From Verrucomicrobiota bacterium (GTDB taxonomy: Bacteria > Verrucomicrobiota > Kiritimatiellia > CAIQIC01 > JAGNIJ01), in the NCBI GenBank assembly GCA_022710725.1, contig JAKLGK010000006.1, positions 257,605-321,604 of the forward strand: a DNA stretch of 64,000 bases, in the 5' to 3' direction. The notes below the pieces were generated by a model that searched no databases, had not been told where the DNA came from, and was given only the letters and a program-made list of their open reading frames with translations. Position numbers and translations under genes: made by a program. Shown here piece after piece: positions 6,559 to 38,464 of this stretch (position 1 is its first letter; every line of letters begins with the position of its first letter).

Positions 6559-7512
6559 ATGTTTCCGTGTGCGCTCGTGAACGGGGTGAAAAGACCTTCC
6601 GTGTGGACGCTGGTTCTCGGTTGGAACCACGCCGAGGACACGATCGAATGCCTGCGCAGCCTCCAGGCCAGCGAGGGCGTGGACCTGAAACTTTTCTTCA
6701 CGGACAACGGCAGCGCGCCGGACCAGGTGGAACGGGTCTGCCGCGAGGTGCCGGCGGCCACGGTCATCCGCCATCCGCAGAACGTGGGGGTGCCGCGGGG
6801 CTTCAACGCGGGCATTGCCTACGCGCTCCAGCACGGCGCGGATTACCTCTTCATGGCCAACAACGACACGACCGTGGCCCCGGACACGATCCGGATCCTG
6901 GTCGAGGCCGCGGAGCGGGATCCCCGCGCGGGCATCATCATGCCGCGCATCTTCTATTATGACCACCGAGACCTGGTCTGGTCGGCGGGTTCCCGCTTCC
7001 GCCGCTTCCCGCCGGCGATCGTCATGCGCAAGGGCCGGGGCGGGTTCGAGCGGGAGGAGGACATCGAGTTCTCCAGCCTCTGCACGGTGCTGCTGCGGGG
7101 GCGGATGTTCAAGGACGCCGGCCTGATGGACCCGAACTTCGTCTTCTACTACGAGGACTACGACCTCTGCCTCCGCATCCGCGACGCGGGGTACGCGATC
7201 AAGCTCGTTCCCGCGGCGCGCTCGTGGCACAAGGTGGCCCGGATCACGCGCGCCGGCTCGACCAGCCCGACGTTCTGGCGGAACTACGGGCGGAGCGTCG
7301 CGATCTTCCAGCGGCTGCAGCGGCGGCGCCGCTGGCTGGCCGGGCCGGCCTTCCTGGCCTTCCAGTACTTCCGCGCGCTGGTCGAGGGCAAGCGGCAGGC
7401 GTGGGCGCCGTTCCGGGAGGGACTGCGCGAGGGCCGCGCCCTGGAGCTGAAGCCCGTGCCGCGCTGGGATCAGCCGCCGATGGATCCCGTCGAAGTGGCG
7501 CAGGCCCCCTGA
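6559..7512 (+). CDS. Family 2 glycosyltransferase (soluble, GT-A fold).
   Basis: N-terminal GT2 architecture (VLGWNHAEDTIECLRSL, FTDNGS, FMANNDT, and the DYDLC D-x-D-like region). Confidence 0.75.
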   Translation: MFPCALVNGVKRPSVWTLVLGWNHAEDTIECLRSLQASEGVDLKLFFTDNGSAPDQVERVCREVPAATVIRHPQNVGVPRGFNAGIAYALQHGADYLFMANNDTTVAPDTIRILVEAAERDPRAGIIMPRIFYYDHRDLVWSAGSRFRRFPPAIVMRKGRGGFEREEDIEFSSLCTVLLRGRMFKDAGLMDPNFVFYYEDYDLCLRIRDAGYAIKLVPAARSWHKVARITRAGSTSPTFWRNYGRSVAIFQRLQRRRRWLAGPAFLAFQYFRALVEGKRQAWAPFREGLREGRALELKPVPRWDQPPMDPVEVAQAP

Positions 7513-7582
7513 CGCGGCGGCCGGGCCGCCGGGAAAAACGCCGTTGCTTCCCGAAACCGGGTGTGTGATCATTTTACCCGCC

Positions 7583-8560
7583 ATGAAGCTCGTGGTGCAA
7601 ATCCCGGCCCTGAACGAGGAAAAGACGATCCAGGACGTCATCCGCTCCATCCCGCGGAATATCCCCGGCATCCGGTCTACGTCGGTCCTCGTGGTGGACG
7701 ACGGCTCGACCGACCGCACCAGCGCGCTGGCCGCCGAGGCGGGCGCGATCGTGGTCCGGCACGACCGCCGGCGGGGCGTCGGCGCGGCGTTCCGGACCGG
7801 CCTCCAGAAATCCATGGAACTCGACGCCGACGTCATCGTCACCATCGACGCCGACGGGCAGTTCAATCCGGAGGACATCCAGAAGCTGACCGAGCCCATC
7901 CTCCGGGGCGAGGCCGACTACGTGACCGCGTCGCGGTTCCTGGATCCGTCGCTGACCCCGGAGATGCCCCGCATGAAGCGGTGGGGCAACGACTTCATGG
8001 CGCGCTGGATCAGCTCGCTGGTGGGGCAGGATTTCAAGGACGTTTCCTGCGGGTTCCGGGCCTACGCGCGCGACGCCTACCTGCGGCTCGTGCTGCTCGG
8101 CGATTTCACCTACACGCACGAGACCTTTCTCACGCTGGCCTTCGCGCGCCTCCGGATCCGGGAAGTGCCGATCCTCGTCCGCGGCGTCCGGGAGCATGGC
8201 CAGTCGAGGGTGGCCAGCAACCTGTGGCGGTACGGCTGGCGCACGGCGGGGATCATCCTGCGGACCTACCGGGACTACCGCCCCCTACGGTTCTTCAACT
8301 ACGTGGCCGGCGTCCTGCTGGTGGCCGCGCTCGGGTTCCTCGGCTTCCTGATCTCCGTGAAGGTGCGCACCGGCATGTTCACGCCGCACAAGTGGTCCGG
8401 CTTCCTCGCCGCCGCGCTGGCCGGGGCCGCCCTGGTGCTGTTCCTGATCGGCCTGGTCGCGGAAATGCTGGACCGCCTGCGCGTGGCGCAGGATGAACTG
8501 GTCTTCCGGGTCCGGCGCATGGAGATGGACCTGAAGCGCGCGAAGCAGCAGCCGTCGTAA
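7583..8560 (+). CDS. Family 2 glycosyltransferase of the polyprenyl-phosphate sugar synthase type (ArnC/GtrB/DPM1-like), with two C-terminal TM helices.
   Basis: The N-terminus KLVVQIPALNEEKTIQDVI...VLVVDDGSTDRTS...IDADGQ is typical of DPM1/GtrB enzymes. Two hydrophobic helices near the C-terminus are consistent with ArnC/GtrB. Confidence 0.8.
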   Translation: MKLVVQIPALNEEKTIQDVIRSIPRNIPGIRSTSVLVVDDGSTDRTSALAAEAGAIVVRHDRRRGVGAAFRTGLQKSMELDADVIVTIDADGQFNPEDIQKLTEPILRGEADYVTASRFLDPSLTPEMPRMKRWGNDFMARWISSLVGQDFKDVSCGFRAYARDAYLRLVLLGDFTYTHETFLTLAFARLRIREVPILVRGVREHGQSRVASNLWRYGWRTAGIILRTYRDYRPLRFFNYVAGVLLVAALGFLGFLISVKVRTGMFTPHKWSGFLAAALAGAALVLFLIGLVAEMLDRLRVAQDELVFRVRRMEMDLKRAKQQPS

Positions 8561-8576
8561 CGCGGGAAGCCGGCGC

Positions 8577-9713
8577 ATGGCCAAGCCCCTCGTGCTGTCC
8601 TACTGGAACGTCAACCGGCCGGTCACCGGTGGCCTGCGGCGCGTAACCGCCCTGCTGGAGGCCCTCGGCCCCGACCTTGTCCTGTGCCAGCCCGAACCGG
8701 CCCACCCCGTGTACGAGACCGCGGCCTACCGCACGAACTGGACGCGCGCTGGAGGGGGCGGCATCAACCGCGGCCTGTTCCATTTCTTCCTGCCCGAACC
8801 CGCGCGCGCGGCGCGGGAAGCCTGGCGGCGCGTCCGGCCCGGGCTCATCGTGCATACCTCCATCTGGACCTTCTGGCCGCTGCGGCGGGCGGGCACGCCG
8901 ATGGTCCTCGACGCGCACGATGCGCTGGGCGCGGCCATGACCGGGCGGTACGGGCGGCGTCATCCGTTCACGCTCCTGGTGCGCGCCTGGGAACGCCGCG
9001 TGGCGCGGCGGGTGGACCGCCTCTTCGTCTGCTCGGACGTGGACCGGGCCTACTTCGCGCGCGAGTACGGGGTCTCCGAGGATCGGCTCTCGGTCGTCCC
9101 GAACGGGGTGCATGTCCGCCCGCCCGCGGAGGGGCCGTTGCCGGCCGGTTGGGAGGGGCGGCTGGCCGGCAAGACCGTGCTCTTCTTCATGGGGAAGCCG
9201 GCCTACCAGCCGAATGCCCAGGGCCTGCAATTCCTCCGCGACACGGTGCTGCCGGAACTGGAGCGGCGGCAGCCCGGCCGGTTCTGCGTCGTGGCCTGCG
9301 GCGGCGAGGCGCGGCCCGGCATGGCGCACCCGGCCCTTCATTTCGCGGGCGTGGTTTCCGACGAGGAGTTGCAGGCCTTCATCCGGCGCGCGGACCTGTG
9401 CCTTTCGCCCACGTTTTCGGGTTCCGGCACTCGGCTGAAAATCCTGGAGTGGCTGGCGGCGGGCAAGGCCGTGATTTCCACGCCCAAGGGCGCGGAGGGC
9501 CTGGGCGCGGTTCCGAGCCGGGATCTGGTCGAGGCCGAAGGCCGGGATTTCGCCGCCGCCATTCTGTCCCTCGCGGAGGCGCCGGATCGAGTCCGTGCCC
9601 TGGGACGGGCGGGCGCCGACTTCGTGCGCCAGCGGTACGACTGGTCGTCCAGCAGCCAGCCGCTGTGGCGGGAGGGGATGAGGCGTTGGCTCGATCCACG
9701 GCAGACCGGATGA
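8577..9713 (+). CDS. Family 1 (GT4-type) glycosyltransferase.
   Basis: A C-terminal GT1 signature (GSGTRLKILEWLAAGKAVISTPKGAEGL) in a GT-B-like layout. Confidence 0.78.
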   Translation: MAKPLVLSYWNVNRPVTGGLRRVTALLEALGPDLVLCQPEPAHPVYETAAYRTNWTRAGGGGINRGLFHFFLPEPARAAREAWRRVRPGLIVHTSIWTFWPLRRAGTPMVLDAHDALGAAMTGRYGRRHPFTLLVRAWERRVARRVDRLFVCSDVDRAYFAREYGVSEDRLSVVPNGVHVRPPAEGPLPAGWEGRLAGKTVLFFMGKPAYQPNAQGLQFLRDTVLPELERRQPGRFCVVACGGEARPGMAHPALHFAGVVSDEELQAFIRRADLCLSPTFSGSGTRLKILEWLAAGKAVISTPKGAEGLGAVPSRDLVEAEGRDFAAAILSLAEAPDRVRALGRAGADFVRQRYDWSSSSQPLWREGMRRWLDPRQTG

Positions 9714-11911
9714 ACGGCGTTCCCGCGAGTCGGCCCCGGCGGGCGGCGGCCTTCCTGCTCCGGCAGGCGCCTTTGCTGCTGGTCGGCGCCGTGATCCTGT
9801 GGGGCGCGTGCCGCATTCAAACCTATATCTGCGCCCAGGATCCCTCCACGTACATCGACCAGGCCCTGCGGTTACTGCGGGCGCCCTGGGGCTCGCCGGA
9901 GATGTGGCAGGCCCTCACCCGCTATTCGCCGCTGCACACCCTGGTGCTGGCCGGCAGCATCCGGTGCTTCGGCACCATGGCGCCCTACTGGGTGAACGTG
10001 TTCTTCGCGTGGGCTTTCCTGGCCTGCCTGTGGTGGTTCCTGGCGCGGCTCTGGCCGTCCGCGGGGGATCGCGCCCTGGCGCTGGCCGTCGCGGTGACCT
10101 GTCTGCTGGCCGGCCATGACGCGAATATCCAGTTTCTGGTGTATCCCTTCCGGGAGGCGTCGGCCTTCTTTTTCATCTTCCTGTCCTACGGGCTGCTGCT
10201 GAAGGGGGACGCGGAGGACCGGCGGAGTTTCAGCGCGCTGGCCGGCCTGGCGATGCTGCTCGGCGTGGCCGCCCGCGAGCCCTTTGTCATGGCCGTCCCG
10301 GGCCCGCTCCTCCTGGCCGTGACGGGCCGCGGCCGCCCCTGGGCGCGACGCCTGGCCCATGCCGGCCTGTTCCTGCTGCCGTTCCTGCTCGCCGGCGGCG
10401 CGTGGTTTACCGTCACGGCGATGACCGGGCAGGGCACGACCGCCCAGTTCAAGGACTGGGCCGAGCTGATGCAATCGCACGGCGCCGGAACCTTCGCGGC
10501 GCGCACGCTCGGCAACGTCCGGTACCTGGCCGGGGTCATTCTCGGCGAGATCGGGTGGTCGGGCGTCGCCCTGCTGGCGGCGGGGCTCTACCCGGGGCGT
10601 CGCGCCCGGATCGTCTACCTGCTGCTGGTCGTGCCGGCTCTTACGGTCGGCCTCTTTTACAGCACGTACAACATCTACATGCGCTACGTGATGTCCGTGC
10701 TGCTGTTCCTCGGGCCCTGGGCCGGGACCGGGCTGCTCAACCTGCTGGCGCTCGCGCGGTTCCTGGCCCGCGGGACGCGCCTGCGGCTGGCCTGGGCGCC
10801 GCTCGCGGGGAGCCTCCTGCTGCTGGGCTCCCTCGCGGTGCAACTGGCGAGCCTGCCGGCCAGCCCCTTCACGCGGCGGGAGGTCGGCGCGTTCCTCGGC
10901 CGGCTTTCAGGCCTGGGCACCGGAACCGTCTACTACGTGGAGCGGATGAACCGGGACATCTGGGCCGCGCTTCGCAATCATACCCACCTCGAAACCAGCC
11001 GCGCCCTCGATGTCCCCCGAAACCTGGAAGCCGGGCGGCCGATGGCGTTTCTGAAGCCGCTCAACGCCGCCAGCCGTGCCCGCGCCAAAGGACGCGAGGA
11101 CGGAGTTCGGATTGAGGAACTGCTTCTGCAATCGGGCGACCTGGTTCCGTGGCCGGGCGTGGTCGAGCCGTGGCGCCTGGGCCGGGGTGCATATGCCGTC
11201 CTGCAGGTCGTGCCGCGAAGCCGGACGTCGGTGAGCGAGCCGGTGGCCATCCCCGCCGGAACGGCCGGCGTCCTCTGGCTGAACTTCCGGGATGTCCGGC
11301 CGGAAGCCGTGAAGAAAATCCGCCTGCTCGGACCCGATGGCCGTGAACGCCTGGCCACGGAGATGATGGGGCAGGGCTTGCAGCCGGTGTGGTGGCCCGG
11401 CGATCCGGCCGAGGAAACCAATCTGGTTCTCGAGACGGCCTCGTCGGCGCCGCTGCCCGCGCGGGTGTACACCGGATTCCAGCCTGCGGCGGAGGCCCGT
11501 GAGTTTCCCCTGGACGCCCGGCGCCTGCTTTCGGCGACGCGGTGGTTCGAGCCGCCGTTCGGCCAGGCGCCGGCGCGCTTCAGCCCGGCCGTATTTTTTT
11601 CCGAGGGGGGCCGATTGCGGCTGCCCTGGCCGAACGATCCCCGCGCGGACCGGCTGCAACTGTCCCTCGAGGGCCGCGTGCCGCCCGACCGGGAAAAGAC
11701 GGGACAGCTCACCGTGCGGTCGGGTCCCCGGGAAGTGCCCTGCGAAGCGAACCGGGTGGGCTACCGCTCCTGGAACATTGACCTGACGATCGAGAGGGAG
11801 TCCGGCGCCCGCGAGGCCGTGCTGGAACTGTCTTACGAGCCGGTGAACACGAACAGGCCGCTCCATCTCACCGTGAGCCAGGCGGCCTTGCGCTACTTCG
11901 GCTCGGAATAG
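9710..11911 (+). CDS. Paralog A of a large GT-C-type membrane glycosyltransferase-like protein (ArnT/PMT-like polytopic N-terminal domain plus a ~400-aa C-terminal non-membrane domain).
   Basis: About ten predicted TM helices in the first ~330 aa and a conserved REP motif (AAREPFVMAV). The ATG overlaps the stop of the upstream GT1 gene (ATGA). It is paralogous to the proteins at 11893-14580 and 18505-20712. The C-terminal domain carries a VLWLNFRD motif shared with paralog C. Confidence 0.62.
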   Translation: MNGVPASRPRRAAAFLLRQAPLLLVGAVILWGACRIQTYICAQDPSTYIDQALRLLRAPWGSPEMWQALTRYSPLHTLVLAGSIRCFGTMAPYWVNVFFAWAFLACLWWFLARLWPSAGDRALALAVAVTCLLAGHDANIQFLVYPFREASAFFFIFLSYGLLLKGDAEDRRSFSALAGLAMLLGVAAREPFVMAVPGPLLLAVTGRGRPWARRLAHAGLFLLPFLLAGGAWFTVTAMTGQGTTAQFKDWAELMQSHGAGTFAARTLGNVRYLAGVILGEIGWSGVALLAAGLYPGRRARIVYLLLVVPALTVGLFYSTYNIYMRYVMSVLLFLGPWAGTGLLNLLALARFLARGTRLRLAWAPLAGSLLLLGSLAVQLASLPASPFTRREVGAFLGRLSGLGTGTVYYVERMNRDIWAALRNHTHLETSRALDVPRNLEAGRPMAFLKPLNAASRARAKGREDGVRIEELLLQSGDLVPWPGVVEPWRLGRGAYAVLQVVPRSRTSVSEPVAIPAGTAGVLWLNFRDVRPEAVKKIRLLGPDGRERLATEMMGQGLQPVWWPGDPAEETNLVLETASSAPLPARVYTGFQPAAEAREFPLDARRLLSATRWFEPPFGQAPARFSPAVFFSEGGRLRLPWPNDPRADRLQLSLEGRVPPDREKTGQLTVRSGPREVPCEANRVGYRSWNIDLTIERESGAREAVLELSYEPVNTNRPLHLTVSQAALRYFGSE

Positions 11912-14580
11912 AAGCCGACGCGGTCCACGGGAATGCCCAGTTGCCGGCTGTCGCCGACGCCCAGGAGTTCGTGCGGCGACCAGGTCGTACTGGACACGGT
12001 CAGCGTGTTGGTGCCCGGCTGCACCAGGGTCGCCGGGATGGCCGCCTCAACGCGGTTGGAATCCACCAGGTGGGCCGCCAGGTCCGTCCCGTTGAACGAC
12101 AGCGCGATCTCCGCCGGCGGCGCGTTGGTCGCGCGGATCTGCGGCTTGAAATCCACGCGCACGACCCGGTCCGTGCCGTCCGCCGCCAGCCAGAACGCCA
12201 GCACGCCCTTCCCGTCGGTCCATCGCATGGTGTCCTCCCCGCGGCCCTCGCGGGCATAGAAACCCGAGACGATGTGGGGGAAGTCCACGCCGCTGCCGAT
12301 ATCCACCGACCGGATGGCGGACAGATCATGGACGGTGATGCGATCCAGTTCCGGGGGGAAGGGCGGCTCGGGCGCGCCGGACATGACATCGAGCGTTTCC
12401 AGCCCGATGCGGCACACCTGGCCCTCGCGCGCGCCGGCGGGGATGCGCAGCACGCGGCGGTGAAAGATGTAGCTCCGCAGGATCCGCCGGGTCTCCGGCG
12501 GCTGGCCGTCGGGCGTAAAGCGCACGTCGACCGGCACCTCGAGGCTCTCCTTGGTCGTGGGGCGCACGCGGAGATAGAAGGATACCTGGATGAGATCGTT
12601 CGGGGGGTAGGGCATGGGCACGGCCACGGTCGCGCGGGCCGGCCAGTGCGGCTTGCGGCGCGTCTGGCCCTTGAGGATCGTGAAGCCCTCTTCCAGCACG
12701 GCGTCGTGCACCGTGTCGCCGCTGCTGGCGAAGCGCAGCACGAGCGGCTCGTCGCGCCGGACGAGTCCGGCCCCGAACGTGTTGGGAACCGGCTGGTCGG
12801 ATTCGAGCGTCAGGCGGTACGGAGGGGTAAAGGACGGCCAGTCCACTCGGTAGTATTGCGTGCCGTTGCCGACGCGCGGCGCGATGACCCGGCCGTTCAG
12901 GCTCAATCTCGCCCAACGGCGCGGCACGCCTTCCAGCCAGAGCGTCGCGCCGTTGAACAGGAGGATGTCGTCGGCGTCCGGGGCGGCCTCCAGCGTGAGG
13001 CTCGTCGCGGTATTGGTCCAGAGCGAAAGGCGCGAGAGCGCGAGGTCGCCCAGCCCGACGGCCGGCTGGAAGTGGTAGCGGTCCGCCGGGGCCCGGGCCA
13101 TGGTTTCCGTGTCGAACAGCTGCCGGACGATCCGGCCGAAGGGATCGTCCGTCGAATCCATGAGATACAGGGGATGCCCGGCGGCCAGCCGCTCTCGGAC
13201 ATGCTGATGAATTTCCACCTCCAGGTTCGTGGGATTCAGGATCGGAATCGCGTAGGCCTCGAGCCGGGTGAAGTAGGACACCAGCCCGCCGAGGCCGGGC
13301 GGGGTCAGGATGACGGCGTCCCGGGGCACGGCCTTTTCGATATCCGCTTTCAGCCGCCGCGCCTGCGGGATCTGGAACGGCGGCATCTCCGGCGGGCGCA
13401 GGAGCGGAATCACCGCGACCAGGACGAAGAGGGCCGCCAGGCTGCGGAGGGCCGGAAGGATCCATCGCTGCTTGCCGGCGGCGCACAGGAGGCGTTCCGC
13501 CAGGGCCAGCGCGCCGCAGGCGGCCAGGGGCACCGACCACAGCACGACGATGAAGAAGTACCGCTTCACGAAGACCCAGTAGAAGCAATAGAAGATGAAA
13601 TGGACCAGCGCGGCGGGCAGCAGCAGATCCCGCAGGAGGCTTCGTCGCCGCACAACGGCCAGGCCGATGCCATAGACCAGCCCGGCCGCGTACAGCCATC
13701 CGCCCCGCCACCAGAAATAGCGGAGGGCGTGGATGAGCGTGGGAACAAAGGCCCGAAGATGGAGTCCGGGCAGCAGGCGGCCCTCGACCACGGCCTGTGG
13801 CGGCACCACGGCATGCCCGGTGCGGAAGTACGATTGCAGCACCAGCGGCAGCACGCCCAGCGCCAGGAACGCGCCGAACAGGATCACCGAGCGGCCGAGC
13901 GGGATGGCGCGGTTCTTCCGCCACGCCGACAGGCCGTACCAGCCCATCACGGGGGCCATCAGCACCGCGGTCTCCCGGACGTCCGTGGCCAGGCCCAGCG
14001 CCAGCGCCGACAGCACCAGGGCGATCCAGGGCCGGCCGCCCCGGCCCAGGTAGGCGATCAGCAGAAGGACGGATGTCAGCAGCAGGACATGCGAGAGGGG
14101 ATCACGATAAGGATTGGTCAGGTAGACCAGGATTTCGGAATCGAAGTAAAGCAACCCGGCCGCGGCGGCGACGCCGGCGTACGCGGCCGCGCGCGCGTCC
14201 ATGCATTCCCGGGCCGCGAGGACGGTCAGCCGGGCGACCAGGAGCACGATCGCGACGAGCAGCGGCAGGTTCGAGACGAACACGTAGAATGGCCCGACCA
14301 GTCGAATCACGAAGCGGAGGAAGACCGGGTAGGCCAGGGGGAACCGCTGGAGGTGGTCGGTCGGGTGGAGGTTGTGGGCCAGCGTCAGCCAGTTCAGGGG
14401 ATCGGAGTACGGCTTCAGGTAGTAGTAGTTCCAGACGAACCACGCCAGGCCGGCGACCACGAAGGCGATCAGCGCGCCGGGCCGGGTAAGGGCGGACAGA
14501 ACGGCGGCGAGCCGCCGCGCGCCGGGCCCGGACAGGATCTTGTGGCGCCACGGATGGAGCATGCGCACCCGATGCCTCAC
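11893..14580 (-). CDS. Paralog B of the large GT-C-type membrane glycosyltransferase-like protein, convergent with paralog A.
   Basis: The same architecture as paralog A: a polytopic N-terminus (ARLTVLAAREC..., DVRETAVLMAPV) and a large C-terminal domain. A GTG start overlaps the stop of the upstream SGNH hydrolase gene (GTGA). Confidence 0.6.
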   Translation of the reverse strand: MRHRVRMLHPWRHKILSGPGARRLAAVLSALTRPGALIAFVVAGLAWFVWNYYYLKPYSDPLNWLTLAHNLHPTDHLQRFPLAYPVFLRFVIRLVGPFYVFVSNLPLLVAIVLLVARLTVLAARECMDARAAAYAGVAAAAGLLYFDSEILVYLTNPYRDPLSHVLLLTSVLLLIAYLGRGGRPWIALVLSALALGLATDVRETAVLMAPVMGWYGLSAWRKNRAIPLGRSVILFGAFLALGVLPLVLQSYFRTGHAVVPPQAVVEGRLLPGLHLRAFVPTLIHALRYFWWRGGWLYAAGLVYGIGLAVVRRRSLLRDLLLPAALVHFIFYCFYWVFVKRYFFIVVLWSVPLAACGALALAERLLCAAGKQRWILPALRSLAALFVLVAVIPLLRPPEMPPFQIPQARRLKADIEKAVPRDAVILTPPGLGGLVSYFTRLEAYAIPILNPTNLEVEIHQHVRERLAAGHPLYLMDSTDDPFGRIVRQLFDTETMARAPADRYHFQPAVGLGDLALSRLSLWTNTATSLTLEAAPDADDILLFNGATLWLEGVPRRWARLSLNGRVIAPRVGNGTQYYRVDWPSFTPPYRLTLESDQPVPNTFGAGLVRRDEPLVLRFASSGDTVHDAVLEEGFTILKGQTRRKPHWPARATVAVPMPYPPNDLIQVSFYLRVRPTTKESLEVPVDVRFTPDGQPPETRRILRSYIFHRRVLRIPAGAREGQVCRIGLETLDVMSGAPEPPFPPELDRITVHDLSAIRSVDIGSGVDFPHIVSGFYAREGRGEDTMRWTDGKGVLAFWLAADGTDRVVRVDFKPQIRATNAPPAEIALSFNGTDLAAHLVDSNRVEAAIPATLVQPGTNTLTVSSTTWSPHELLGVGDSRQLGIPVDRVGFYSEPK

Positions 14581-15656
14581 TCCACGGGCGCCTGCGGCTC
14601 GACCTCCGAGCGGGCGCTCTCGGGCTTGGCCATGCGCTCGTACATGGCTTCCCAGTACTTGTTGAGCTGCAGGGCCTCGTTGCGGGGGATGTAGGCGGCG
14701 TCGACCAGGCCCTCGTTGAGCAGGTAGTGGAAAATCGCCTCGGCGGCGATCCGGTGCGCAATCTCGCTCGGATGCCCGTCCGCGCCGGGCAGGGTTTCCA
14801 TCCGGGTCGGCGAACGGCCCCGGAGCGAATCCAGCAGGTCCAGATAGCGGATGTTCTCGGACTGGAGGTGGGCGATGATCTTGTCGTGTGCGAACTGGAA
14901 GGGGTAGGGGGTCCGGTCCACGAAGGACAGGCAGGGCCAGATCACCACGAGGAATTCAACCTGCTGGTCGCGGCAGGCCTTGTGGAAGTCGCGCGCGGCG
15001 TCCTGGAACAGCTTCCAGCCGCTGTAGTCGTCGTCGTACAGCCGTTCGTAGTAGCGATGGAAGCCCCGCCCGCTCTTCACGTCGCCGATCTTCTTGTTGA
15101 ACCACGCCAGGGCCCGCGAGCGGCGGATGAGCGGGGCCAGCCAGCCGGTGGGCACGGGGGGCATCATCTCCGTCCGCCAGGCGCGCAGTTCCTTGTAGTT
15201 GTTGAAATTTTCCGTGTCGTTCAGGTACATGGCCAGGATCACGAGGCGCGGCCGCGTCGCCAGGGCCTCGTCCAGGAACCCGCGCTGCATGTAGGTCGAG
15301 GTCCCGCCCTTGGCGAAGACGTCCACGGCGGCCGGCGTGGCGTCCTTCTTGAGGTTGAGCAGTCGCTCCAGCCGCATGCCGAAGGTGTCGTCCGGCTGCA
15401 CGCCCTGGCCGGTCGTGAACGAGTCGCCCACGATGGCGACGCGGAGCACGTGGTTGGTGTCCCGCACCCAGGGATGGATCCGTTCGGCGTCGGAAGCGAA
15501 GTAGAACCGGCTGCGGTCGAAGAGCGGGGTCTGCTTGATGGACTCCGGCATCGGGCCGCGCAGGCGCAGCGCGAGTTCCAGCGCCGCGAGCGCGCAGAAC
15601 AGTACAAACAGCATGAGGACGACGCGCAGGATGATGGATTTGACGATGGGCTTCAT
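14577..15656 (-). CDS. SGNH/GDSL-family hydrolase with an N-terminal membrane anchor (copy 1 of a tandem pair).
   Basis: GDS block VAIVGDSFTTGQG and catalytic DxxH block ADGHPSEIAHRIAAE. There is one N-terminal TM helix and a Pro/Glu-rich C-terminal tail. The start was chosen at MKPIVKSI. Confidence 0.72.
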   Translation of the reverse strand: MKPIVKSIILRVVLMLFVLFCALAALELALRLRGPMPESIKQTPLFDRSRFYFASDAERIHPWVRDTNHVLRVAIVGDSFTTGQGVQPDDTFGMRLERLLNLKKDATPAAVDVFAKGGTSTYMQRGFLDEALATRPRLVILAMYLNDTENFNNYKELRAWRTEMMPPVPTGWLAPLIRRSRALAWFNKKIGDVKSGRGFHRYYERLYDDDYSGWKLFQDAARDFHKACRDQQVEFLVVIWPCLSFVDRTPYPFQFAHDKIIAHLQSENIRYLDLLDSLRGRSPTRMETLPGADGHPSEIAHRIAAEAIFHYLLNEGLVDAAYIPRNEALQLNKYWEAMYERMAKPESARSEVEPQAPVE

Positions 15657-15706
15657 ATTTTCTTGATTACATCCGATTGTAAGGGCGGGGGCGGCGCGCC
15701 GCAACG

Positions 15707-16789
15707 TCATTCCGGGGTCAGGGGGGCGGGCTCGGCAACCGGCTCGCCGTGTCCGGCCAGCCTGTCCGCCTCGTCCTGCTTGACCGCGGTCACATCGTTC
15801 ATGAAGGCCGACAGGATGCGCCACTGCTCCTCCGGAGACCGGCTGGCGATTGCCGGCAGGTATTCGGGATAGATCAGCTTTTCGGCCAGCAGGTACTTCA
15901 GGATCGCCTCCGCGGCGATGCGGTGCCCGATCTCGTTCGGGTGGGCATCCACCCGCGGGATGGCTTGCAGCCGTTCCGACGGCAGCCCCTTGTAGACGGG
16001 GAGCAAATCCAGATACGGTATTCCGGCGGCATCGAGTTCCTCGTGGACCTGCTCATGGATCCAGTCGAACGGATAATCATCGATGTGGCTAAGGAGCGGA
16101 AAGACCACGGCCACCATCTTGATGTTGTTCCGGCGCGTGGTCTCGGAGAAATCCTTGAGCGCCTTGGTGAAAAGCTTCCAGCCGCCGTACTCCTTGTCGA
16201 ACAGCTTGCGGTTCATTTCCAGGTAGCCGCGGCGGGCGCGGGCATCCTCCAGTTTCTGGTATACAAGCGTGGCCAGGCGCGACCAGCCCAGCGAACGAGC
16301 GAACCAGCGGGAGGGTTGATGGGGCAGGGCATCCATGCGCCATCGCGTCAGTTCCTCCTTGCGCCGGGGGTCCTCGGTATCGTTCAGGCAGATGCCGAGG
16401 ATCAGCAGTTCCGGCTTCCATGCGACGGCTTCCTCCAGGAATTTCAACTCGCCGAAGGTGCACATGCCGCCCCGCGCCCAGACACGGACCTCGGCGGGCC
16501 GTTGACCGTCGTTGAGGTTCAGGAGGCGCTCGAGCCGCGCCCCGTAGGCATCCTGGGGCTGGCTTCCGGCGCCCACGGTGATGGAGTCGCCCAGCACGGC
16601 GATGCGCAGCGCGTTCGTCGCGCCGCGGCTCCACGGGTGCATCCTGGTCTCGCCGTCGTAAAAGGAAACGGGGGGGCGATCATGACGCAGTTGCTGGTCG
16701 GGCGCCACGCGGTAGTAGGCGCGCAGGCCCAGTTCGCAGAAGGCCAAGATCATCAATAACAGAATTCCCGAGAACACGATCTTTTTCAC
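15707..16789 (-). CDS. SGNH/GDSL-family hydrolase with an N-terminal membrane anchor (copy 2, paralog of 14577-15656).
   Basis: IAVLGDSITVGAGS and VDAHPNEIGHRIAAE motifs. The protein is collinear with the neighbouring paralog over its whole length. Confidence 0.72.
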   Translation of the reverse strand: MKKIVFSGILLLMILAFCELGLRAYYRVAPDQQLRHDRPPVSFYDGETRMHPWSRGATNALRIAVLGDSITVGAGSQPQDAYGARLERLLNLNDGQRPAEVRVWARGGMCTFGELKFLEEAVAWKPELLILGICLNDTEDPRRKEELTRWRMDALPHQPSRWFARSLGWSRLATLVYQKLEDARARRGYLEMNRKLFDKEYGGWKLFTKALKDFSETTRRNNIKMVAVVFPLLSHIDDYPFDWIHEQVHEELDAAGIPYLDLLPVYKGLPSERLQAIPRVDAHPNEIGHRIAAEAILKYLLAEKLIYPEYLPAIASRSPEEQWRILSAFMNDVTAVKQDEADRLAGHGEPVAEPAPLTPE

Positions 16790-16968
16790 GCTGGTCCGTC
16801 CGGTGTGAGCATGGGGCGATTTTGTAGCGCGTCGGCGGGCATTTCACAAGAGCGAACACCCGCAACCTTGCCGATACTTCTGATGAGTCTGCGCCGGCCC
16901 GGTCCACGGATGGGCTGGAACCTCTTATGTATCCTGTAGATGAAAAGCGGAGGCCGGTCAGCATCGCC

Positions 16969-16996
16969 ATGCTCACACTTCTAGAAGTGTGAGCAT
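16969..16996. repeat. 28-bp perfect palindrome ATGCTCACACTTCTAGAAGTGTGAGCAT (copy 1 of 2).
   Basis: Read directly from the sequence. Its reverse complement is identical. It lies in a 556-bp non-coding gap upstream of the SGNH hydrolase operon. Confidence 0.9.
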
Positions 16997-17073
16997 CAGT
17001 CCGGATAGGCAATTATGAGAACTGCGTCACAAGAATTTGCATTACAGCATATAGTGTCGATTTATATTAGCAT

Positions 17074-17093
17074 CACACTTCTAGAAGTGTGAG
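17074..17093. repeat. 20-bp perfect palindrome TCACACTTCTAGAAGTGTGA (copy 2), sharing a 23-bp identical core with copy 1.
   Basis: Read directly from the sequence. It is about 100 bp from copy 1, and the intervening segment is unusually AT-rich for this genome. Confidence 0.9.
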
Positions 17094-17345
17094 CACAAGT
17101 TTACTGACGTTTTTTTACAGGAACGATCCTCACTGGAGACCGAGCCGTGCCATCGCCGCCTGTTTCCATCCCAAAAGGAGGCCGGTCGGCATAGGCGCGA
17201 TGCGTTGGCGGCATGCCCTGTCGGATGCCGGTCCGTGACGACGTCAACGTTCCCGACGATTCCCCGACCAGTATTGGCGATCGGATCCGCGGGTGAATGC
17301 CGGGGCCGGGACTCCCGTGGGCGGCCGCCGGTCGCGACGCGCGGC

Positions 17346-18503
17346 TTAGGTCGCTTTCCCGCCGGCGAGATCCTGGAACACGGTCTCGTACCGCGCCGAA
17401 ATGACCTCCCACGAGAACTGGTCGCGCGCCCGCTGCCGGCCGGCTTCGCCCAGGCGCCGGCGCTCGGTGTCGTTCCGGAGAAGAGCCGCCACCGCAGCCC
17501 GCATGGCCTCGGCATCATCCGGCTCCACCAACCGGCCCGTGACACCGTCCTCCACGGCCTCCAGGATTCCGCCGACACGCGTGGCGACGGACGGCAACCC
17601 CGCCAGGGCCGCCTCGAGGAACACGATCCCGAAGCCCTCCACGTCTCCCGGGATGTCCCGGGCCGGCAGTGCGAAGACCCTTGCCTCACGGTACAGGGCC
17701 GCCACTTCCTCGTCGCGGAGCCGGCCGGCGAGATGCACGTGGCGGGCCAGCCCCAGCTCCTGCACGCGCCGCGCGATCAGGTCGCGCCTCCGCTCATGGT
17801 GCACAAGGGAATGATGAGCGTCGTCCCCGACCACGACGTACAACACGTCGGAAAATTCCCGGACCAGCGGGGGCATCACCTGCTCCACGAACTCGAGGAC
17901 CCCCTTGCGCCGGATGAGCCGACCGACGGTCATCAGCACGCGGCGCCCGGCCACGAGGTCCGACAATTCTTTCGGCAGCGGCGGCGGGGAGACGTCGGCG
18001 GGCGGCACGAGGACGCCAGGCGGAACGACAACGATCCGCTCCGGCCGCTGCCCGGCCGCGATCAGCAGGTCGCGCGTCCGCCCGCTGTTCGCGCACAGCC
18101 GGTCGGCCCGGCCGAACAGCCAGCGGACGGCGCGGGTGTACAACCATCCGGGGTAGAGGATGTCGCTGCCGTGCGCCAGCACGACCAGCGGCCGGCGGAA
18201 CAGCCGCGAGAGCATCCATCCCGCCGGCGCGGACACGACGCTCGAGCATGCGATCACGTCCGGCCGTTCCCCGCGGCAGAGCGAAAAACCCCGGGCAAGG
18301 GAAAACAAGACATAGGCTTTCAGACCCGGCCGCGCCGCGCGCCAGGTGTCCGGTTCCGGCGGTGCGTCCTTCGCATGGGCCGTGACCACGCGGACGGCGT
18401 GGCCCCTCGCCCGCAATCCGCGGACGAGATGTTCGGCGACGTACTCGATCCCGCCCGTGACCGGCGGGTAGTTCCAGGTGAGCATCAGGATGCGCAGGCC
18501 CAT
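17346..18503 (-). CDS. Family 1 (GT4-type) glycosyltransferase.
   Basis: N-terminus MGLRILMLTWNYPPVTGGIEYV and C-terminal GFGIVFLEAALAGLPSVAT...E motifs typical of GT4. Its start abuts the stop of the upstream GT-C gene. Confidence 0.8.
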   Translation of the reverse strand: MGLRILMLTWNYPPVTGGIEYVAEHLVRGLRARGHAVRVVTAHAKDAPPEPDTWRAARPGLKAYVLFSLARGFSLCRGERPDVIACSSVVSAPAGWMLSRLFRRPLVVLAHGSDILYPGWLYTRAVRWLFGRADRLCANSGRTRDLLIAAGQRPERIVVVPPGVLVPPADVSPPPLPKELSDLVAGRRVLMTVGRLIRRKGVLEFVEQVMPPLVREFSDVLYVVVGDDAHHSLVHHERRRDLIARRVQELGLARHVHLAGRLRDEEVAALYREARVFALPARDIPGDVEGFGIVFLEAALAGLPSVATRVGGILEAVEDGVTGRLVEPDDAEAMRAAVAALLRNDTERRRLGEAGRQRARDQFSWEVISARYETVFQDLAGGKAT

Positions 18504-18504
18504 G

Positions 18505-20712
18505 TCATTCCGTTTCGTTGCGGCCGGCCGCGGCCGGCTCAATCGCCGCTTGGACCGTTTCGGTGGCAAACCATAGCGTTGTCCCGCCGGGCGCATCAAT
18601 AAAAAGGTCGAGCGGCCTGGCCGCCTGCTGGGGATCCAATATCGCGCCCGTCCAAATCCTGGATTGGGGCAGGGCGACCGCCCAGTTCGTCACGGCCCGG
18701 CCATCCTGCTCGTACCGGAAGGACACCGTTCCCTGGAAGGGGGCCGCCTTCATGCCGAGGGCCAGGTTGAACGCGCCGTAGGATCCGTGCACGGCCGGCA
18801 GGCGGAGCCGTCCGCCCGACGAAGCGGGCGCGGCCAGCGCGGCGCCGACGAACGCCGGCTCAAACCAGCGCTCCAGGGACGGGCCGCGCTGGGGGCCGGC
18901 TTCGAACCGCGCCGGCTTGCCGGCCGGGACCACCGTGTACACGAAGCCGGAGGGACCCGGTCGGTCGCCCGATACGTCGACGAGGGCCGCCCCGGGCTCC
19001 GCCGGCTTCTCGAAGATGAAGGCCTGCAGAAACCGCGCATCCTCGACGAGCCACGAAGCCAGTGTTTGTCCCCCGTCCGTCCGGACCTCGACGCGCCGCG
19101 CGGCATTCGACGGGCCATCCTTGAAATCCAGCCAGAGCACGGCCGTGTCCCCGGCGGGCAGGGTCACGCGCGCGGAGACGCTCGTGGCGGACCAGGGCCG
19201 CACGTCGTACACGCCATACCGGCCGCCGCCGAGGGCCAGCTGGAGCGGTTGGCCGTCCGGGCCCACCCGCGCCTGGACGTCATGCCGGTAACGAAGGTGG
19301 CGCGACGCCGAGTTGGCCAGGTCCCGGCGAAAGGAGCCGGGCGGGAAGCAGTCGCGCGTCAGGGGCTCCAGGTAGAAACACCGGGCGCCGCCCCCGTCCA
19401 TCCCCGCGCGCGCGGGATCGGCGGGCCGGTGCGCCAGGTGATAGATCATCGTCTCGCCGAGATGCCGGCAGATCGGCTCGATCACCACGAGATCCTCCGG
19501 CCGCACGACCGCATCGAAGTCCCGGCGGAATTGCTCCACGTCCTGACGCGTTATCCGCGGGCCCCACGGCTGAAGGGTCCAGGCCGTGCGGATGAGCCCG
19601 ACGGCCAGCAGGGCGGCGGCCAGGACGCGCGCGGGTCCGGCGATGGGACGGCGGACCAGCCGGACAGCCAGAACGGACAATTTATCGATGGCCAGGTGAA
19701 GGCCGTACGCGGCGAACGGGCAGAGCGGCAGCAGCACGGCCAGGGCGTACCGGCGGTGCGCCGTGTAGGTCGCGTACAGGAAGAGATAAGCCAGGGCGCT
19801 GAACAGGAAGAACCAGAGCGCCGCGCGGTTGCGCCGCAACCCGGCGAGGCCCAGCAAGCCGAGCAGCAGCCACGGATAGCCCAGCGCGTCCCGGAGAAAG
19901 ACGAGCAGGGCGCGCAGGGAATGGACGTAGGCGTCCCGGAAGGCCGGGGGCGGCGTGTGCAGCAGCCGCGCGCTCCACCACTGCCATTGCCCGCTGGACG
20001 GGGAGCCCACGGCCTGCCGCGCCAGGAGCCAGGTCCCGCCGGCCAGCAGCCACGGCAGGATCGCGCCGAAAAAGCACGCCCGGCGCGCGCGCCCGCTTTC
20101 CTTCCGCCGAAAGAGCAGCCACAGGTACGGGCCGATGGCCCCGCAAACCGCCGGCTCCCGCATGGCGGCCGCGATGACGAACGCGCACCCTCCGGCGAAA
20201 AACAGGCCCGGCTTCCGCCGGTCGTCCGCCAGGAGAAAAAGGAGCCACCCCGCGGCCACGAACAGGAACGACGGCGTCTCGCGAAACGCGTACAGGAGAA
20301 AGTGCGCGTTCAGGACATACCCGCGCAGGAGGATCAGCAGCGTCGCGAGCAGGCCCAGCCCGGCGGCCCGGTCGTCCCCGAAAACGCGGCGGAGAACCAG
20401 GAGATACAGGCCCAGCAGGAGGCCGGCGAGCGCGACGTTGATCCAGGCGGTGACCCACGGCCCGGCCACCCGGATCGCCAGCGCCAGGAACAGCGGCCAT
20501 CCCGGCGCGACATGCGTAAGCGCCTGGCGGAATTCCGGGGAGGACCGGTCGGCGGACAGGATCGTGCGCGCGAAAATCCTGTGCGTGGCGTCGTCCTGGC
20601 CGCTGACCGCCGTCCGGATCTGCCAAGCGGCCAGGGCCAGGATGCCCAGGGCGAACAGCCAAGCCGCCAGGGGCGCCAGGCGGGGCGCCGGCACATGAGG
20701 TTTGGGGTCCAT
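18505..20712 (-). CDS. Paralog C of the large GT-C-type membrane glycosyltransferase-like protein.
   Basis: A polytopic N-terminus (AFRETPSFLFVAAGWLLFLL, AMREPAVCG) aligns with paralog A (PFREASAFFFIFLSYGLLL, AAREPFVMAV). The C-terminal domain carries VLWLDFKDG, matching VLWLNFRD in paralog A. Confidence 0.62.
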   Translation of the reverse strand: MDPKPHVPAPRLAPLAAWLFALGILALAAWQIRTAVSGQDDATHRIFARTILSADRSSPEFRQALTHVAPGWPLFLALAIRVAGPWVTAWINVALAGLLLGLYLLVLRRVFGDDRAAGLGLLATLLILLRGYVLNAHFLLYAFRETPSFLFVAAGWLLFLLADDRRKPGLFFAGGCAFVIAAAMREPAVCGAIGPYLWLLFRRKESGRARRACFFGAILPWLLAGGTWLLARQAVGSPSSGQWQWWSARLLHTPPPAFRDAYVHSLRALLVFLRDALGYPWLLLGLLGLAGLRRNRAALWFFLFSALAYLFLYATYTAHRRYALAVLLPLCPFAAYGLHLAIDKLSVLAVRLVRRPIAGPARVLAAALLAVGLIRTAWTLQPWGPRITRQDVEQFRRDFDAVVRPEDLVVIEPICRHLGETMIYHLAHRPADPARAGMDGGGARCFYLEPLTRDCFPPGSFRRDLANSASRHLRYRHDVQARVGPDGQPLQLALGGGRYGVYDVRPWSATSVSARVTLPAGDTAVLWLDFKDGPSNAARRVEVRTDGGQTLASWLVEDARFLQAFIFEKPAEPGAALVDVSGDRPGPSGFVYTVVPAGKPARFEAGPQRGPSLERWFEPAFVGAALAAPASSGGRLRLPAVHGSYGAFNLALGMKAAPFQGTVSFRYEQDGRAVTNWAVALPQSRIWTGAILDPQQAARPLDLFIDAPGGTTLWFATETVQAAIEPAAAGRNETE

Positions 20713-20838: not shown

Positions 20839-21360
20839 ATGAGGCGCTCCTGTCAGGCCGGCGGCATAACCTGCGCGTTGCTTGCGGCGGGCTGGCTGGC
20901 GACGGCCTGGTCCGGCGAGGTCCCGCGCGTCGAGGTCGGGGGCGCGACCGTGTCGGAGGAAACGCCCGCCGTGCGGATTGTCCGGAAAATCGCGAGGCCG
21001 GCCGCCGTCGGCCGCCCCGTGGATGTCGTGGTCAGCAGCGGCGAATCCCCGCAGACGAACGGGTGGGATGTGGCGGACGGCGACCTCGAGACCGCGTGGG
21101 CGGGCCGCGCCGGCGAAAACGGCTGGTGGCTGGCGCTGGTCTACGAGCCCCCTCTGAAGATGACGGACATCGAACTGCTCCTGGCGCCTTCCTCGACGAC
21201 CAACGTCATGATCCTCGGCAGCGCGGATGCGCTGGACTGGATCGAACTGCCGGCGGCCCCGGAGTCGGGCCTGGACCGGATCCGCTATCTCTGGATCGTC
21301 TTCGAGCCGGATGCCTCCGGACGCCGGCCCGTGGTCCTGGAAGTCAAACCCATCCCGTAG
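20839..21360 (+). CDS. Small secreted protein, possibly an F5/8-type-C (discoidin/CBM32-like) carbohydrate-binding fold.
   Basis: Signal-peptide-like N-terminus (ALLAAGWLATAWSG). A GWDVADGDLETAWAG motif resembles the DGxxxTxW block of discoidin domains. Confidence 0.45.
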   Translation: MRRSCQAGGITCALLAAGWLATAWSGEVPRVEVGGATVSEETPAVRIVRKIARPAAVGRPVDVVVSSGESPQTNGWDVADGDLETAWAGRAGENGWWLALVYEPPLKMTDIELLLAPSSTTNVMILGSADALDWIELPAAPESGLDRIRYLWIVFEPDASGRRPVVLEVKPIP

Positions 21361-21410
21361 CCGCCGGCGCGCCCGGCGGGACCCATCCGGCGGGAGGACC
21401 GGACAGGCCT

Positions 21411-37128: not shown

Positions 37129-37134
37129 TCCGCC

Positions 37135-37914: not shown

Positions 37915-37921
37915 GGCAGGG

Positions 37922-38419: not shown

Positions 38420-38464
38420 GGAATGACCAGGAAATACACGAAAGACACGGAAACGGAAAGGCTC

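Follow-up and report, generated by a model that had tools for sequence, protein, structure and literature searches.

The stretch of Kiritimatiellia DNA analysed here (the window, 64,000 nucleotides) contains an island of glycosyltransferase genes. The initial annotation read it as a candidate for an undescribed envelope glycosylation system, and the questions raised are whether its three large membrane proteins, A, B and C, are GT-C enzymes, what would supply them with sugar and what they would act on. The island was found to occupy positions 6559-27563, extending past 20712, where it had been thought to end. The right-hand extension adds an ArnC-like GT2, a GT4, a pyruvyl transferase and a Mur-ligase/M23 fusion. 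GT2b (26634-27563) forms the right end, and nqrA follows at 27708.

Within 6559-20712, three GT2 genes had been counted, including two ArnC-like ones with TM helices. Two were found, G1 (6559-7512, + strand) and G2 (7583-8560, + strand). Only G2 resembles DPM1/ArnC/GtrB and carries TM helices at its C-terminus; G1 is soluble and rhamnosyltransferase-like. In place of three GT1 genes the same range holds two GT4 genes, at 8577-9713 (G3, + strand) and 17346-18503 (G8, - strand). The genes at 14577-15656 and 15707-16789 were rejected as GT1 candidates; both encode SGNH/GDSL-family proteins that have a single TM helix at the N-terminus. Beyond this range come a third GT4 (25511-26641) and a second ArnC-like GT2 (26634-27563).

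The three long open reading frames were present as described, with GC3 of coding type (0.83-0.88). A (9710-11911, + strand) is 733 aa and C (18505-20712, - strand) is 735 aa in the public gene calls for the same organism, which give B (11893-14580, - strand) as 889 aa from an ATG at 14562; from the GTG at 14580 it would be 895 aa. B and A are convergent, and their 3' ends overlap by 19 bp. Translational coupling had been noted at three junctions. The ATGA overlap of the G3 stop and the A start was confirmed at 9710-9713. The GTGA overlap at 14577-14580 is present in the DNA, but with the B start of the public calls it is replaced by a 14-nt gap. One base lies between the C stop and the G8 start (TGA-C-ATG at 18507-18501).

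The three proteins had been called mutual paralogs. A and C were related by BLASTP (30% identity over 645 aa, E 1e-37). The similarity of B to A or to C was not significant by BLASTP, and homology was found by profile-profile comparison of the A/C family with the B family (hhalign probability 100%, E 1.5e-54, 657 columns); bridging sequences also connect B with A and C. The proposed triplication is not a recent event: A-type, B-type and C-type are subfamilies of old standing, also found together in distant relatives.

In each protein the N-terminal ~390 aa form a polytopic domain, and the next 350-500 aa a soluble one. The predicted model has ~11 TM helices, which would place the C-terminal domain in the periplasm; the N-terminus carries positive charge. 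Structural matches included Emb, AftA, AftB and AftD. The C-terminal beta domains showed a moderate similarity to carbohydrate-binding modules (CBMs), which is no proof that they bind carbohydrate. A, B and C have the fold of lipid-sugar-dependent GT-C glycosyltransferases, so that the core of the GT-C relay idea holds on structural evidence, while the sequence-family evidence for it fails. None of the three proteins matched the PMT, PMT_2, DUF2723 and GT39/83 models that had been suggested as a check, with the threshold as loose as E<=10. TPR and MIR domains were lacking, and no GT-C model in Pfam or NCBIfam matched A, B or C.

Remote sequence links were found only with a PMT_2 protein and with TMEM260. 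The A/C profile aligned with a PMT_2+TPR protein across the PMT_2 region of that protein (hhalign 95.4%, E 1.8e-8), 2 of the 66 family members gave weak PMT_2 matches, and the best PDB match of the B profile was the O-mannosyltransferase TMEM260 (weak, E 0.25). PMTs have ~11 TM helices, the number predicted here. The proteins might thus be protein O-glycosyltransferases of the PMT/TMEM260/TMTC type, acting on envelope or secreted proteins with a donor from G2 or GT2b. We regard this as unlikely, because the C-terminal domains resemble carbohydrate-binding beta sandwiches and not the protein-binding MIR/TPR modules of PMT, TMTC and TMEM260, and because the conserved neighbours (GT4, pyruvyl transferase, SGNH) build or modify glycans. 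Moreover, the canonical TMEM260-like+TPR gene of the same window (38465-40663) belongs to a separate family, just marginally related to A, B and C.

Four motifs were invariant and common to the three proteins: DxxxY/W, FRE/YRD, REP/RET and RY. The R-E-P/T motif reported initially was confirmed and hardly varies: it reads R189-E190-P191 in A, R202-E203-T in B and REP in C. By helix counting, TM5 and TM6 may have FRE and REP at their cytoplasmic ends, so that these motifs may be structural and not catalytic. The acidic residue sought in the first loop was found as an invariant Asp at the loop start after TM1 (A D44, B D60, C D40), with Q39-D40 of C aligning with D44 of A. In A, TM1 is directly followed by this Asp, which occupies the N-cap position of the first-loop helix; a Tyr comes four residues later (D44...Y48). 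The invariant residues of the B family include S59-D60-P61, R159 and R340-Y341. A GT-C-like fold could also belong to scaffolds, transporters or glycan-binding sensors without enzyme activity. This is highly improbable, given that the loop-1 Asp and the Arg-Tyr pair (R325-Y326 in A) were invariant or nearly so across 66+19 diverse sequences and that linkage with a donor synthase is conserved.

G2 (325 aa) belongs to the gene string of A, two genes upstream, and carries two TM helices towards its C-terminus (241-259 and 274-292). Its best NCBIfam matches were AglJ (3.5e-37), Dol-P-hexose transferase, PpgS and ArnC, all under the equivalog cut-offs, and its PDB relatives were DPMS (5mlz, 3e-12), ArnC (~1e-9) and GtrB (5ekp, full-length alignment). 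GT2b (- strand, 309 aa), 27% identical to G2, matched AglJ (2.7e-25), PpgS (1.9e-15) and ArnC (3e-14) over residues 6-275, and its C-terminal TM helices correspond to hydrophobic segments at ~208-249 and ~261-279. On these similarities, G2 and GT2b probably make lipid-linked sugar donors for the GT-C enzymes. Synthases of the DPMS/ArnC/GtrB type make monophosphate-linked single sugars, and one of this type, at 71% identity, is the most conserved neighbour of the GT-C family. It is thus very unlikely that A, B and C are ligases, polymerases or oligosaccharyltransferases using polyprenyl-diphosphate oligosaccharides, with the GT2 synthases serving another purpose. The island lacks an initiating phosphoglycosyltransferase and Wzx, and the WWD (WWDxG-type) motif is absent from A, B and C, which argues that they are not oligosaccharyltransferases.

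Other genes of the island suggest a glycan that is assembled and modified. G1 (317 aa) is a rhamnosyltransferase/GlfT1-like GT2 (Pfam Glycos_transf_2, 1e-16; a weak NCBIfam rhamnosyltransferase match) with no TM helix and no PDB relative, and is kept with the GT-C family in the closest relative only. The GT4 proteins are G3 (378 aa, GT-B; Pfam Glyco_transf_4 and Glyco_trans_1_4), G8 (385 aa; Glycos_transf_1, 5e-33) and the product of 25511-26641 (- strand, 376 aa; Glycos_transf_1, 2e-33; EpsE-like by NCBIfam). Upstream of B on the same strand lies G6 (14577-15656, - strand), 359 aa also in the public calls, with a Pfam Lipase_GDSL_2 match and its TM helix as anchor. Its paralog G7 (15707-16789, - strand, 360 aa, 40% identity) is likewise anchored and matched Lipase_GDSL_2 (1.5e-11) and, weakly, AlgX. 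A CsaB/WcaK-like polysaccharide pyruvyl transferase (24269-25507, - strand, 412 aa) matched Pfam PS_pyruv_trans (5.5e-30) and NCBIfam CsaB (2.6e-38, under the cut-off). Its stop overlaps the start of a 538-aa Mur-ligase-like protein fused to a C-terminal M23 peptidase (22656-24272, - strand; Mur_ligase_M 2e-26, Mur_ligase_C 2e-12, Peptidase_M23 5e-24 in Pfam).

Two genes are possibly part of the island. G10 (20839-21360, + strand, 173 aa) has a hydrophobic N-terminus, signal-peptide-like by eye, gave a weak F5/8 type C Pfam match (1.6e-3, under the cut-off) and is conserved in one relative (L010). A PaaK/DVU_1553-like adenylate-forming enzyme (21411-22670, + strand, 419 aa) gave partial NCBIfam matches to DVU1553_fam_AMP (1.7e-38) and PaaK (4e-31) and a weak Pfam AMP-binding match. 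The segment 16790-17345 is a non-coding gap without codon bias and with lower GC, and gave no Rfam match. It holds two perfect 20-bp palindromes (16973-16992 and 17073-17092; exactly two matches against none expected), both kept in the 84%-identity relative while their flanks diverge; they are probably operators, accompanied by a promoter, for G7-G6-B.

The suggested check of synteny showed the whole block in identical order in that relative. In distant relatives, whose GT-Cs are just 30-39% identical, the G2 orthologs reached 71% (L003 and L013, adjoining GT4 and family GT-Cs). Those of G3 (51% in L003 and L013, 45% in L005), G8 (53% in L004, 48% in L014), G6 (35%, adjoining a B-type gene in L005) and G7 (44% in L005) fell between 35 and 53%, beside family GT-Cs. 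In L005 a pyruvyl transferase also adjoins family genes. Two or three family paralogs each were found in L001, L004, L005, L013 and L014; the convergent A-type/B-type pair recurred in L001 and L013, and C-type orthologs in L004 and L011. Since the old subfamilies travel together, the three types probably differ in the position or step at which they act, and may work as hetero-oligomers. Genes of Arn-like character also adjoin family members in relatives (a formyltransferase and a polysaccharide deacetylase in L004, a DegT aminotransferase in L001, a GT9 heptosyltransferase in L013), and would fit an ArnT- or EptA-type remodelling of lipid A or of the LPS/lipooligosaccharide core, and not of a polymer. 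This is quite unlikely, as no aminosugar genes were found in the window, ArnT has no large CBM-like domain, and three large beta-domain paralogs with GT4, pyruvyl transferase and SGNH genes better suit a more complex glycan.

We consider it fairly probable that the island encodes a lipid-linked-sugar-dependent periplasmic glycosylation relay acting on an envelope glycan. By homology, G2 and GT2b would work at the cytoplasmic face, charging polyprenyl phosphate with a sugar taken from a nucleotide sugar, and a protein encoded outside the island would flip the product. A, B and C, which share the fold of such enzymes, would accept this polyprenyl-phosphate sugar in the periplasmic leaflet, where the loop-1 Asp and the Arg-Tyr pair would serve catalysis and phosphate/sugar binding, by analogy with ArnT and the GT136 enzyme, and would transfer the sugar to an acceptor held by their C-terminal domains. 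The gene context suggests a glycan as acceptor, for which the GT4 enzymes and G1 would assemble a lipid-linked precursor in the cytoplasm; the CsaB-like enzyme would add pyruvyl groups, and the two membrane-anchored SGNH proteins would carry out an O-acyl modification in the periplasm. The presence of three GT-Cs against just two donor synthases counts against the relay; initially, three different sugars or acceptor sites had been proposed. No flippase (GtrA/SMR, MATE, DedA), initiating phosphoglycosyltransferase, Wzx/Wzy, ABC exporter or outer-membrane exporter was found in the island or the rest of the window, so the acceptor pathway is incomplete here.

The three-component system of Citrobacter youngae O1/O2 (Kelly et al. 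2024, PMC11127046) combines a polyprenyl-P-ribose synthase, a MATE flippase and the GT136 GT-C ORF12, the last acting in the periplasm on a glycan that is already complete. Compared by published features, A, B and C resemble this enzyme in its 11 TM helices, small helical periplasmic domain after TM1 and C-terminal beta-rich CBM, and D44...Y48 and R325-Y326 of A parallel its catalytic D31...Y35 and essential R349-Y350 (PMC11127046). The island differs in its DPMS/ArnC/GtrB-type GT2 in place of a phosphoribosyl synthase, its lack of a flippase gene, its three paralogous GT-Cs instead of one and their restriction to PVC bacteria. In contrast to GtrA/GtrB/Gtr* O-antigen glucosylation and ArnC/ArnT lipid A modification, it has no GtrA or ArnE/F-type flippase, and its GT-Cs are much larger, carry CBM-like domains, occur several per locus and gave no match to the HMMs of the PMT_2/GT83 and Gtr families. 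Several paralogous large GT-Cs with C-terminal CBM-like periplasmic domains are likewise encoded together in the case of EmbC/EmbA/EmbB and Aft. The mycobacterial Emb/Aft and PIM/LM/LAM pathways also have a dedicated synthase for polyprenyl-phosphate sugar donors and cytoplasmic GT4s that build the primer (established knowledge and PMC11127046). Here the phylum is a Gram-negative PVC one, the TM helices number ~11 versus 15-16, and HMMs detected no sequence similarity of A, B or C to Emb or Aft.

The kind of system proposed initially is already known from Gtr, Arn, the GT136 three-component systems and Emb/Aft, and the GT-C family alone is undescribed. The system is most likely a variant of known extracytoplasmic cell-envelope glycan decoration, and the finding is a new PVC-restricted GT-C family within a probable Gtr/Arn/Emb-like relay.

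The gene map of the glycan island was built from GC3 frame analysis, Pfam and NCBIfam scans, and public gene calls for the same organism, in a window of high GC content (~64-73%). Beyond a dihydroorotase gene on the left flank (5046-6524), the + strand carries G1 (6559-7512), a soluble GT2; G2 (7583-8560), a GT2 with two C-terminal TM helices; G3 (8577-9713), a GT4; and A (9710-11911, 733 aa), one of three large membrane proteins without a family match. On the - strand lie the second of these, B (11893-14562 or 14580; 889 or 895 aa), then G6 (14577-15656) and G7 (15707-16789), two SGNH/GDSL proteins with one N-terminal TM helix each, the GT4 gene G8 (17346-18503), and the third, C (18505-20712, 735 aa). 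The convergent 3' ends of A and B overlap by 19 bp (11893-11911). The island extends past 20712, to 27563, and is followed on the right by nqrA (27708). The additional segment encodes, on the + strand, a 173-aa protein (20839-21360) that begins with a hydrophobic stretch resembling a signal peptide and weakly matches F5/8 type C (discoidin-type), and a PaaK/DVU_1553-like adenylate-forming enzyme (21411-22670) that Pfam barely detected. On the - strand it encodes a Mur-ligase/M23 fusion (22656-24272, 538 aa), a CsaB-like pyruvyl transferase (24269-25507), a third GT4 (25511-26641), and GT2b (26634-27563), a GT2 with C-terminal TM helices.

The initial annotation had counted three GT2 genes, two of them ArnC-like, and three GT1 genes within 6559-20712. 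By Pfam and NCBIfam this range holds two GT2 genes, one of them ArnC-like, and two GT4 genes; the GT1 reading of the genes at 14577-16789 was ruled out by Pfam, which identified both as SGNH/GDSL proteins. The three large ORFs, with their membrane-plus-soluble architecture and R-E-P/T motif, proved to be real. As for translational coupling, the ATGA overlap at 9710 was confirmed, one base was found between C and G8, where stop and start had been said to abut, and the GTGA overlap at 14580 belongs to a start unused by public annotations.

G7 and G8 are separated by a non-coding gap of 556 bp (16790-17345) containing two perfect copies of a 20-bp palindrome, TCACACTTCTAGAAGTGTGA, at 16973-16992 and 17073-17092. 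The copies lie 100 bp apart and flank an AT-rich stretch, and the palindrome occurs twice in the window versus zero expected occurrences. Both are kept in a close relative in which A is 84% identical; the sequence around them has diverged. Their probable role is as operators for the G7-G6-B genes, upstream of which they lie. An Rfam scan of the window returned zero matches. The Mur-ligase/M23 fusion has an unusual architecture, with Mur-ligase middle and C-terminal domains followed by a C-terminal M23 peptidase domain, and the ATG of its gene shares bases with the pyruvyl transferase stop codon. The genes for the 173-aa protein and the PaaK-like enzyme (20839-22670) are both kept in the close relative. 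At the left edge, a large protein cut by the window start (4-2688, + strand) gave reprolysin-like M12B metalloprotease, MAM-like and InlB B-repeat matches.

No Pfam or NCBIfam model matched A, B, or C, even at E<=10. The Pfam check proposed for GT-C membership (PMT_2, PMT, DUF2723, GT39/83) was therefore negative: none of the three reached the gathering score of PMT_2 (PF13231), PMT, GT39 or GT83, and the HMM of TMEM260-like/DUF2723 proteins (PF11028) gave no match. Remote links were detected with family profiles, made from 66 sequences for A and C and from 19 sequences for B. Weak PMT_2 matches occurred in two of the 66 A/C family members (best 1.5e-5), and hhalign aligned the A/C profile with a PMT_2+TPR protein over the PMT_2 region of the latter (95.4%, E 1.8e-8). 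The best PDB match of the B profile was the human O-mannosyltransferase TMEM260 (E 0.25), and the TMEM260-like protein encoded in the window itself scored 64% with the B family and 9% with the A/C family (hhalign). The A/C profile had zero matches among PDB sequences. When the PMT_2+TPR protein P0165 was used to search the PDB, TPR matches dominated and no bridge to ArnT emerged. The WWDxG motif of STT3, PglB and AglB (GT66) was also sought; A, B, and C contain no WWD, and therefore an oligosaccharyltransferase reading was ruled out.

The window's TMEM260-like protein is a fourth, canonical GT-C (38465-40663, - strand; 732 aa; DUF2723, 1e-21) with C-terminal TPR repeats. Between it and a 259-aa GT2 (37135-37914, + strand) lies a NUDIX gene (37922-38464), and next to the GT2 is an FHA-domain protein (36034-37128, + strand). 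The TMEM260-like and GT2 set at 36034-40663 could be a separate protein O-glycosylation module.

The mutual paralogy of A, B, and C was borne out by different routes. BLASTP aligned A with C over 645 residues (30% identity, E 1e-37) and detected no similarity between B and either of them. The A/C and B profiles aligned with each other by hhalign (probability 100%, E 1.5e-54, 657 columns) across the membrane domain and the greater part of the soluble region, and bridging proteins match both groups. The family is small. Word-indexed homolog searches with A and with the A/C profile were nearly empty, and the family was recovered solely by an exhaustive HMMER search of 1.84 billion proteins, which yielded only 195 relatives (representatives at 50% identity). 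The few named members are all 'hypothetical' proteins from bins of Kiritimatiellia, Lentisphaerae and 'Spartobacteria', and a 'hypothetical' protein from a Kiritimatiellia metagenome-assembled genome has exactly the sequence of A. No earlier description of the family was found in the literature, the sole related match being a paper on GT136.

Structure prediction bore out the proposed GT-C fold. AlphaFold2 gave a pLDDT of 43 for A with a 3-sequence alignment; this was replaced by the 66-sequence alignment, which produced a confident model (pLDDT 93.3, pTM 0.90). The N-terminal polytopic membrane domain has the GT-C architecture, with ~11 membrane helices and two short helices within the loop after TM1, and is followed by a mixed subdomain and then two beta-sandwich regions. 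The structure figures listed with the A model were 22.3 for Pmt4, 21.0 for both AglB and ALG12, 19.3 for ArnT (417 residues aligned), 18.6 for STT3B, 18.4 for AftB, 18.0 for AftA and 17.4 for PglB. The remote sequence links to PMT_2+TPR, PMT_2 and TMEM260 proteins point the same way as the model and these figures.

Four mutually aligned motifs are common to all three subfamilies. The first is an Asp opening the first loop helix, in QD44PxxY of A, SD60PxxW of B and Q39-D40 of C. The others are F-R148-E in A and Y-R159-D in B, the R-E-P/T motif (R189-E190-P in A, R202-E203-T in B), and an Arg-Tyr pair (R325-Y326 in A, R340-Y341 in B). A conserved acidic residue had been expected in the first loop, and D44 is invariant in the 66 A/C sequences, as is D60 in the 19 B sequences, the two being aligned by hhalign. 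In the A model, D44 directly follows TM1 and opens helix 44-57. By the positive-inside rule D44 should face the periplasm, because the N-terminus of A is Arg-rich, and because the number of helices is odd the C-terminal domain would be periplasmic as well. By helix counting, FRE and REP may sit close to where TM5 and TM6 end on the cytoplasmic side, and these motifs could have a structural role instead of a catalytic one.

In architecture, the closest described analogue, compared by published description only, is ORF12 of Citrobacter youngae, a GT136 enzyme (PMC11127046). It combines 11 TM helices with a helical domain behind TM1 and an O-antigen-binding CBM at the C-terminus, and its essential residues are D31, E34, Y35 and R349-Y350. 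The D31...Y35 and R349-Y350 pattern of ORF12 matches D44...Y48 and R325-Y326 of A. With GT136 considered through its published description only, A, B, and C are an unclassified, PVC-restricted GT-C family.

On the donor side, the NCBIfam models closest to G2 were AglJ, Dol-P-hexose transferases, PpgS and ArnC, all under the equivalog cut-offs. Its closest PDB matches were Pyrococcus DPMS (3e-12) and ArnC (~1e-9), and GtrB aligned over residues 3-299, nearly the full length. GT2b is of the same type, AglJ/PpgS/ArnC-like with C-terminal hydrophobic segments, and likewise missed the equivalog cut-offs. Both proteins thus combine a GT2 domain with C-terminal TM helices, as do the DPMS/ArnC/GtrB-type families, which make polyprenyl-monophosphate sugars. 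As in three-component systems, a predicted polyprenyl-phosphate sugar synthase is encoded with a GT-C, here in the form of G2 and GT2b. From the conserved DPMS/ArnC/GtrB-like GT2 neighbours we infer that A, B, and C use a polyprenyl-phosphate-linked sugar donor. Neither the island nor the window contains a GtrA/SMR, MATE or ArnE/F flippase gene, and both also lack an initiating phosphoglycosyltransferase, Wzx/Wzy, ABC exporter or outer-membrane exporter.

The relative with A at 84% identity shares the genes of the block and their order, from the left flank as far as the PaaK-like gene, at which its retrieved locus stops. In more remote relatives, whose GT-Cs show no more than 30-39% identity, the module is still present. 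Orthologs of G2 (71% identical) are followed by orthologs of G3 (51%) in loci L003 and L013, with the G2-G3-A order conserved in L003 and interrupted by insertions in L013. L004 and L014 have G8 orthologs (48-53%) next to family GT-Cs, and an SGNH ortholog (35-44%) abuts a B-type gene in L005. An A-type and a B-type gene also meet tail to tail in L001, overlapping by 68 bp, and in L013, where they are 12 bp apart. About three family members each occur in L004, L005 and L014, the third being an A/C-B hybrid in L014 and, in L005, a truncated 899-aa gene at the locus edge assigned by size only. Since A-, B- and C-type members persist together in distant relatives, they are old, co-travelling subfamilies. 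A recent triplication was ruled out, as orthologs of each type elsewhere are closer than the paralogs here.

Neighbouring genes vary among the relatives, which suggests that lineages differ in the sugars and decorations used. They include a DegT aminotransferase, a GFO/IDH oxidoreductase and a VTT/DedA-like membrane protein in L001 (5609-9391), a formyltransferase and a polysaccharide deacetylase in L004 (9525-11140), methyltransferases and an acyltransferase in L012, and a GT9 heptosyltransferase in L013. The Arn-like genes of L004 and L001 hint that some lineages transfer amino sugars, and some may use DedA-type flippases; in relatives a VTT/DedA-like or DUF2304 gene adjoins the GT2. In the loci L005 (20518-21821) and L013 (14992-17247), a GT2 of ~245 aa lies next to DUF2304, and L013 additionally encodes a protein of 751 aa that matches DUF2304 and ALG3 in Pfam. 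These genes resemble another type of GT-C together with a PpgS/Rv3632-like donor module. In L014 (1-2541), a 945-aa protein matches FGE-sulfatase and, weakly, PMT_2 in Pfam; family GT-Cs and large secreted proteins with CBM6/CBM35 are encoded nearby.

The best-supported reading of the island is a relay for glycosylation in the periplasm that draws on polyprenyl-phosphate sugars. The analysis established homology, the fold, the conserved motifs and the linkage of the genes. The central idea of the initial annotation drew support from structure and context and none from the HMM test proposed for it. Donor type, acceptor class, topology and catalytic roles are assigned here by inference. G2 and GT2b would make lipid-linked monosaccharides, which would be flipped by a protein encoded by genes other than those of the island or window. 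A, B, and C would then move the sugars onto a glycan acceptor held by their CBM-like domains. The acceptor precursor would be built and modified in the cytoplasm by the GT4 enzymes, G1 and the pyruvyl transferase, and the two anchored SGNH proteins would modify the glycan in the periplasm. Protein O-glycosylation by A, B, and C is a possible alternative, as is modification of lipid A or core. The locus is similar in organisation to mycobacterial embCAB and the Aft genes, with several large paralogous GT-Cs bearing CBM-like domains. The pathway logic of such a Gtr/Arn/GT136/Emb-like relay is already familiar, and it would be the GT-C family that is new.

A more speculative proposal, which we regard as rather unlikely, is that Kiritimatiellia and Lentisphaerae build much of an envelope polymer extracytoplasmically instead of only adding decorations to it, through A-, C- and B-type GT-Cs acting sequentially or as hetero-oligomers in analogy to EmbA-EmbB or Pmt1-Pmt2. 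Such assembly may use two polyprenyl-phosphate sugars on a GT4-made primer. If true, it would be a Gram-negative counterpart of mycobacterial arabinan/lipomannan assembly or of the eukaryotic luminal ALG steps, carried out by a GT-C family in no database yet.

Sequence reveals GT-C enzymes poorly, and new families are still founded on single characterised members (GT136, 2024). A, B, and C would add one more such family, restricted to PVC bacteria, for which there are a confident model, candidate catalytic residues and a conserved set of synthase, GT4 (two) and SGNH genes. That A-, C- and B-type members so regularly occur together raises the question of whether they act stepwise or as a complex. 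The family also offers a way into the scarcely characterised envelope glycans of Kiritimatiellia and Lentisphaerae.
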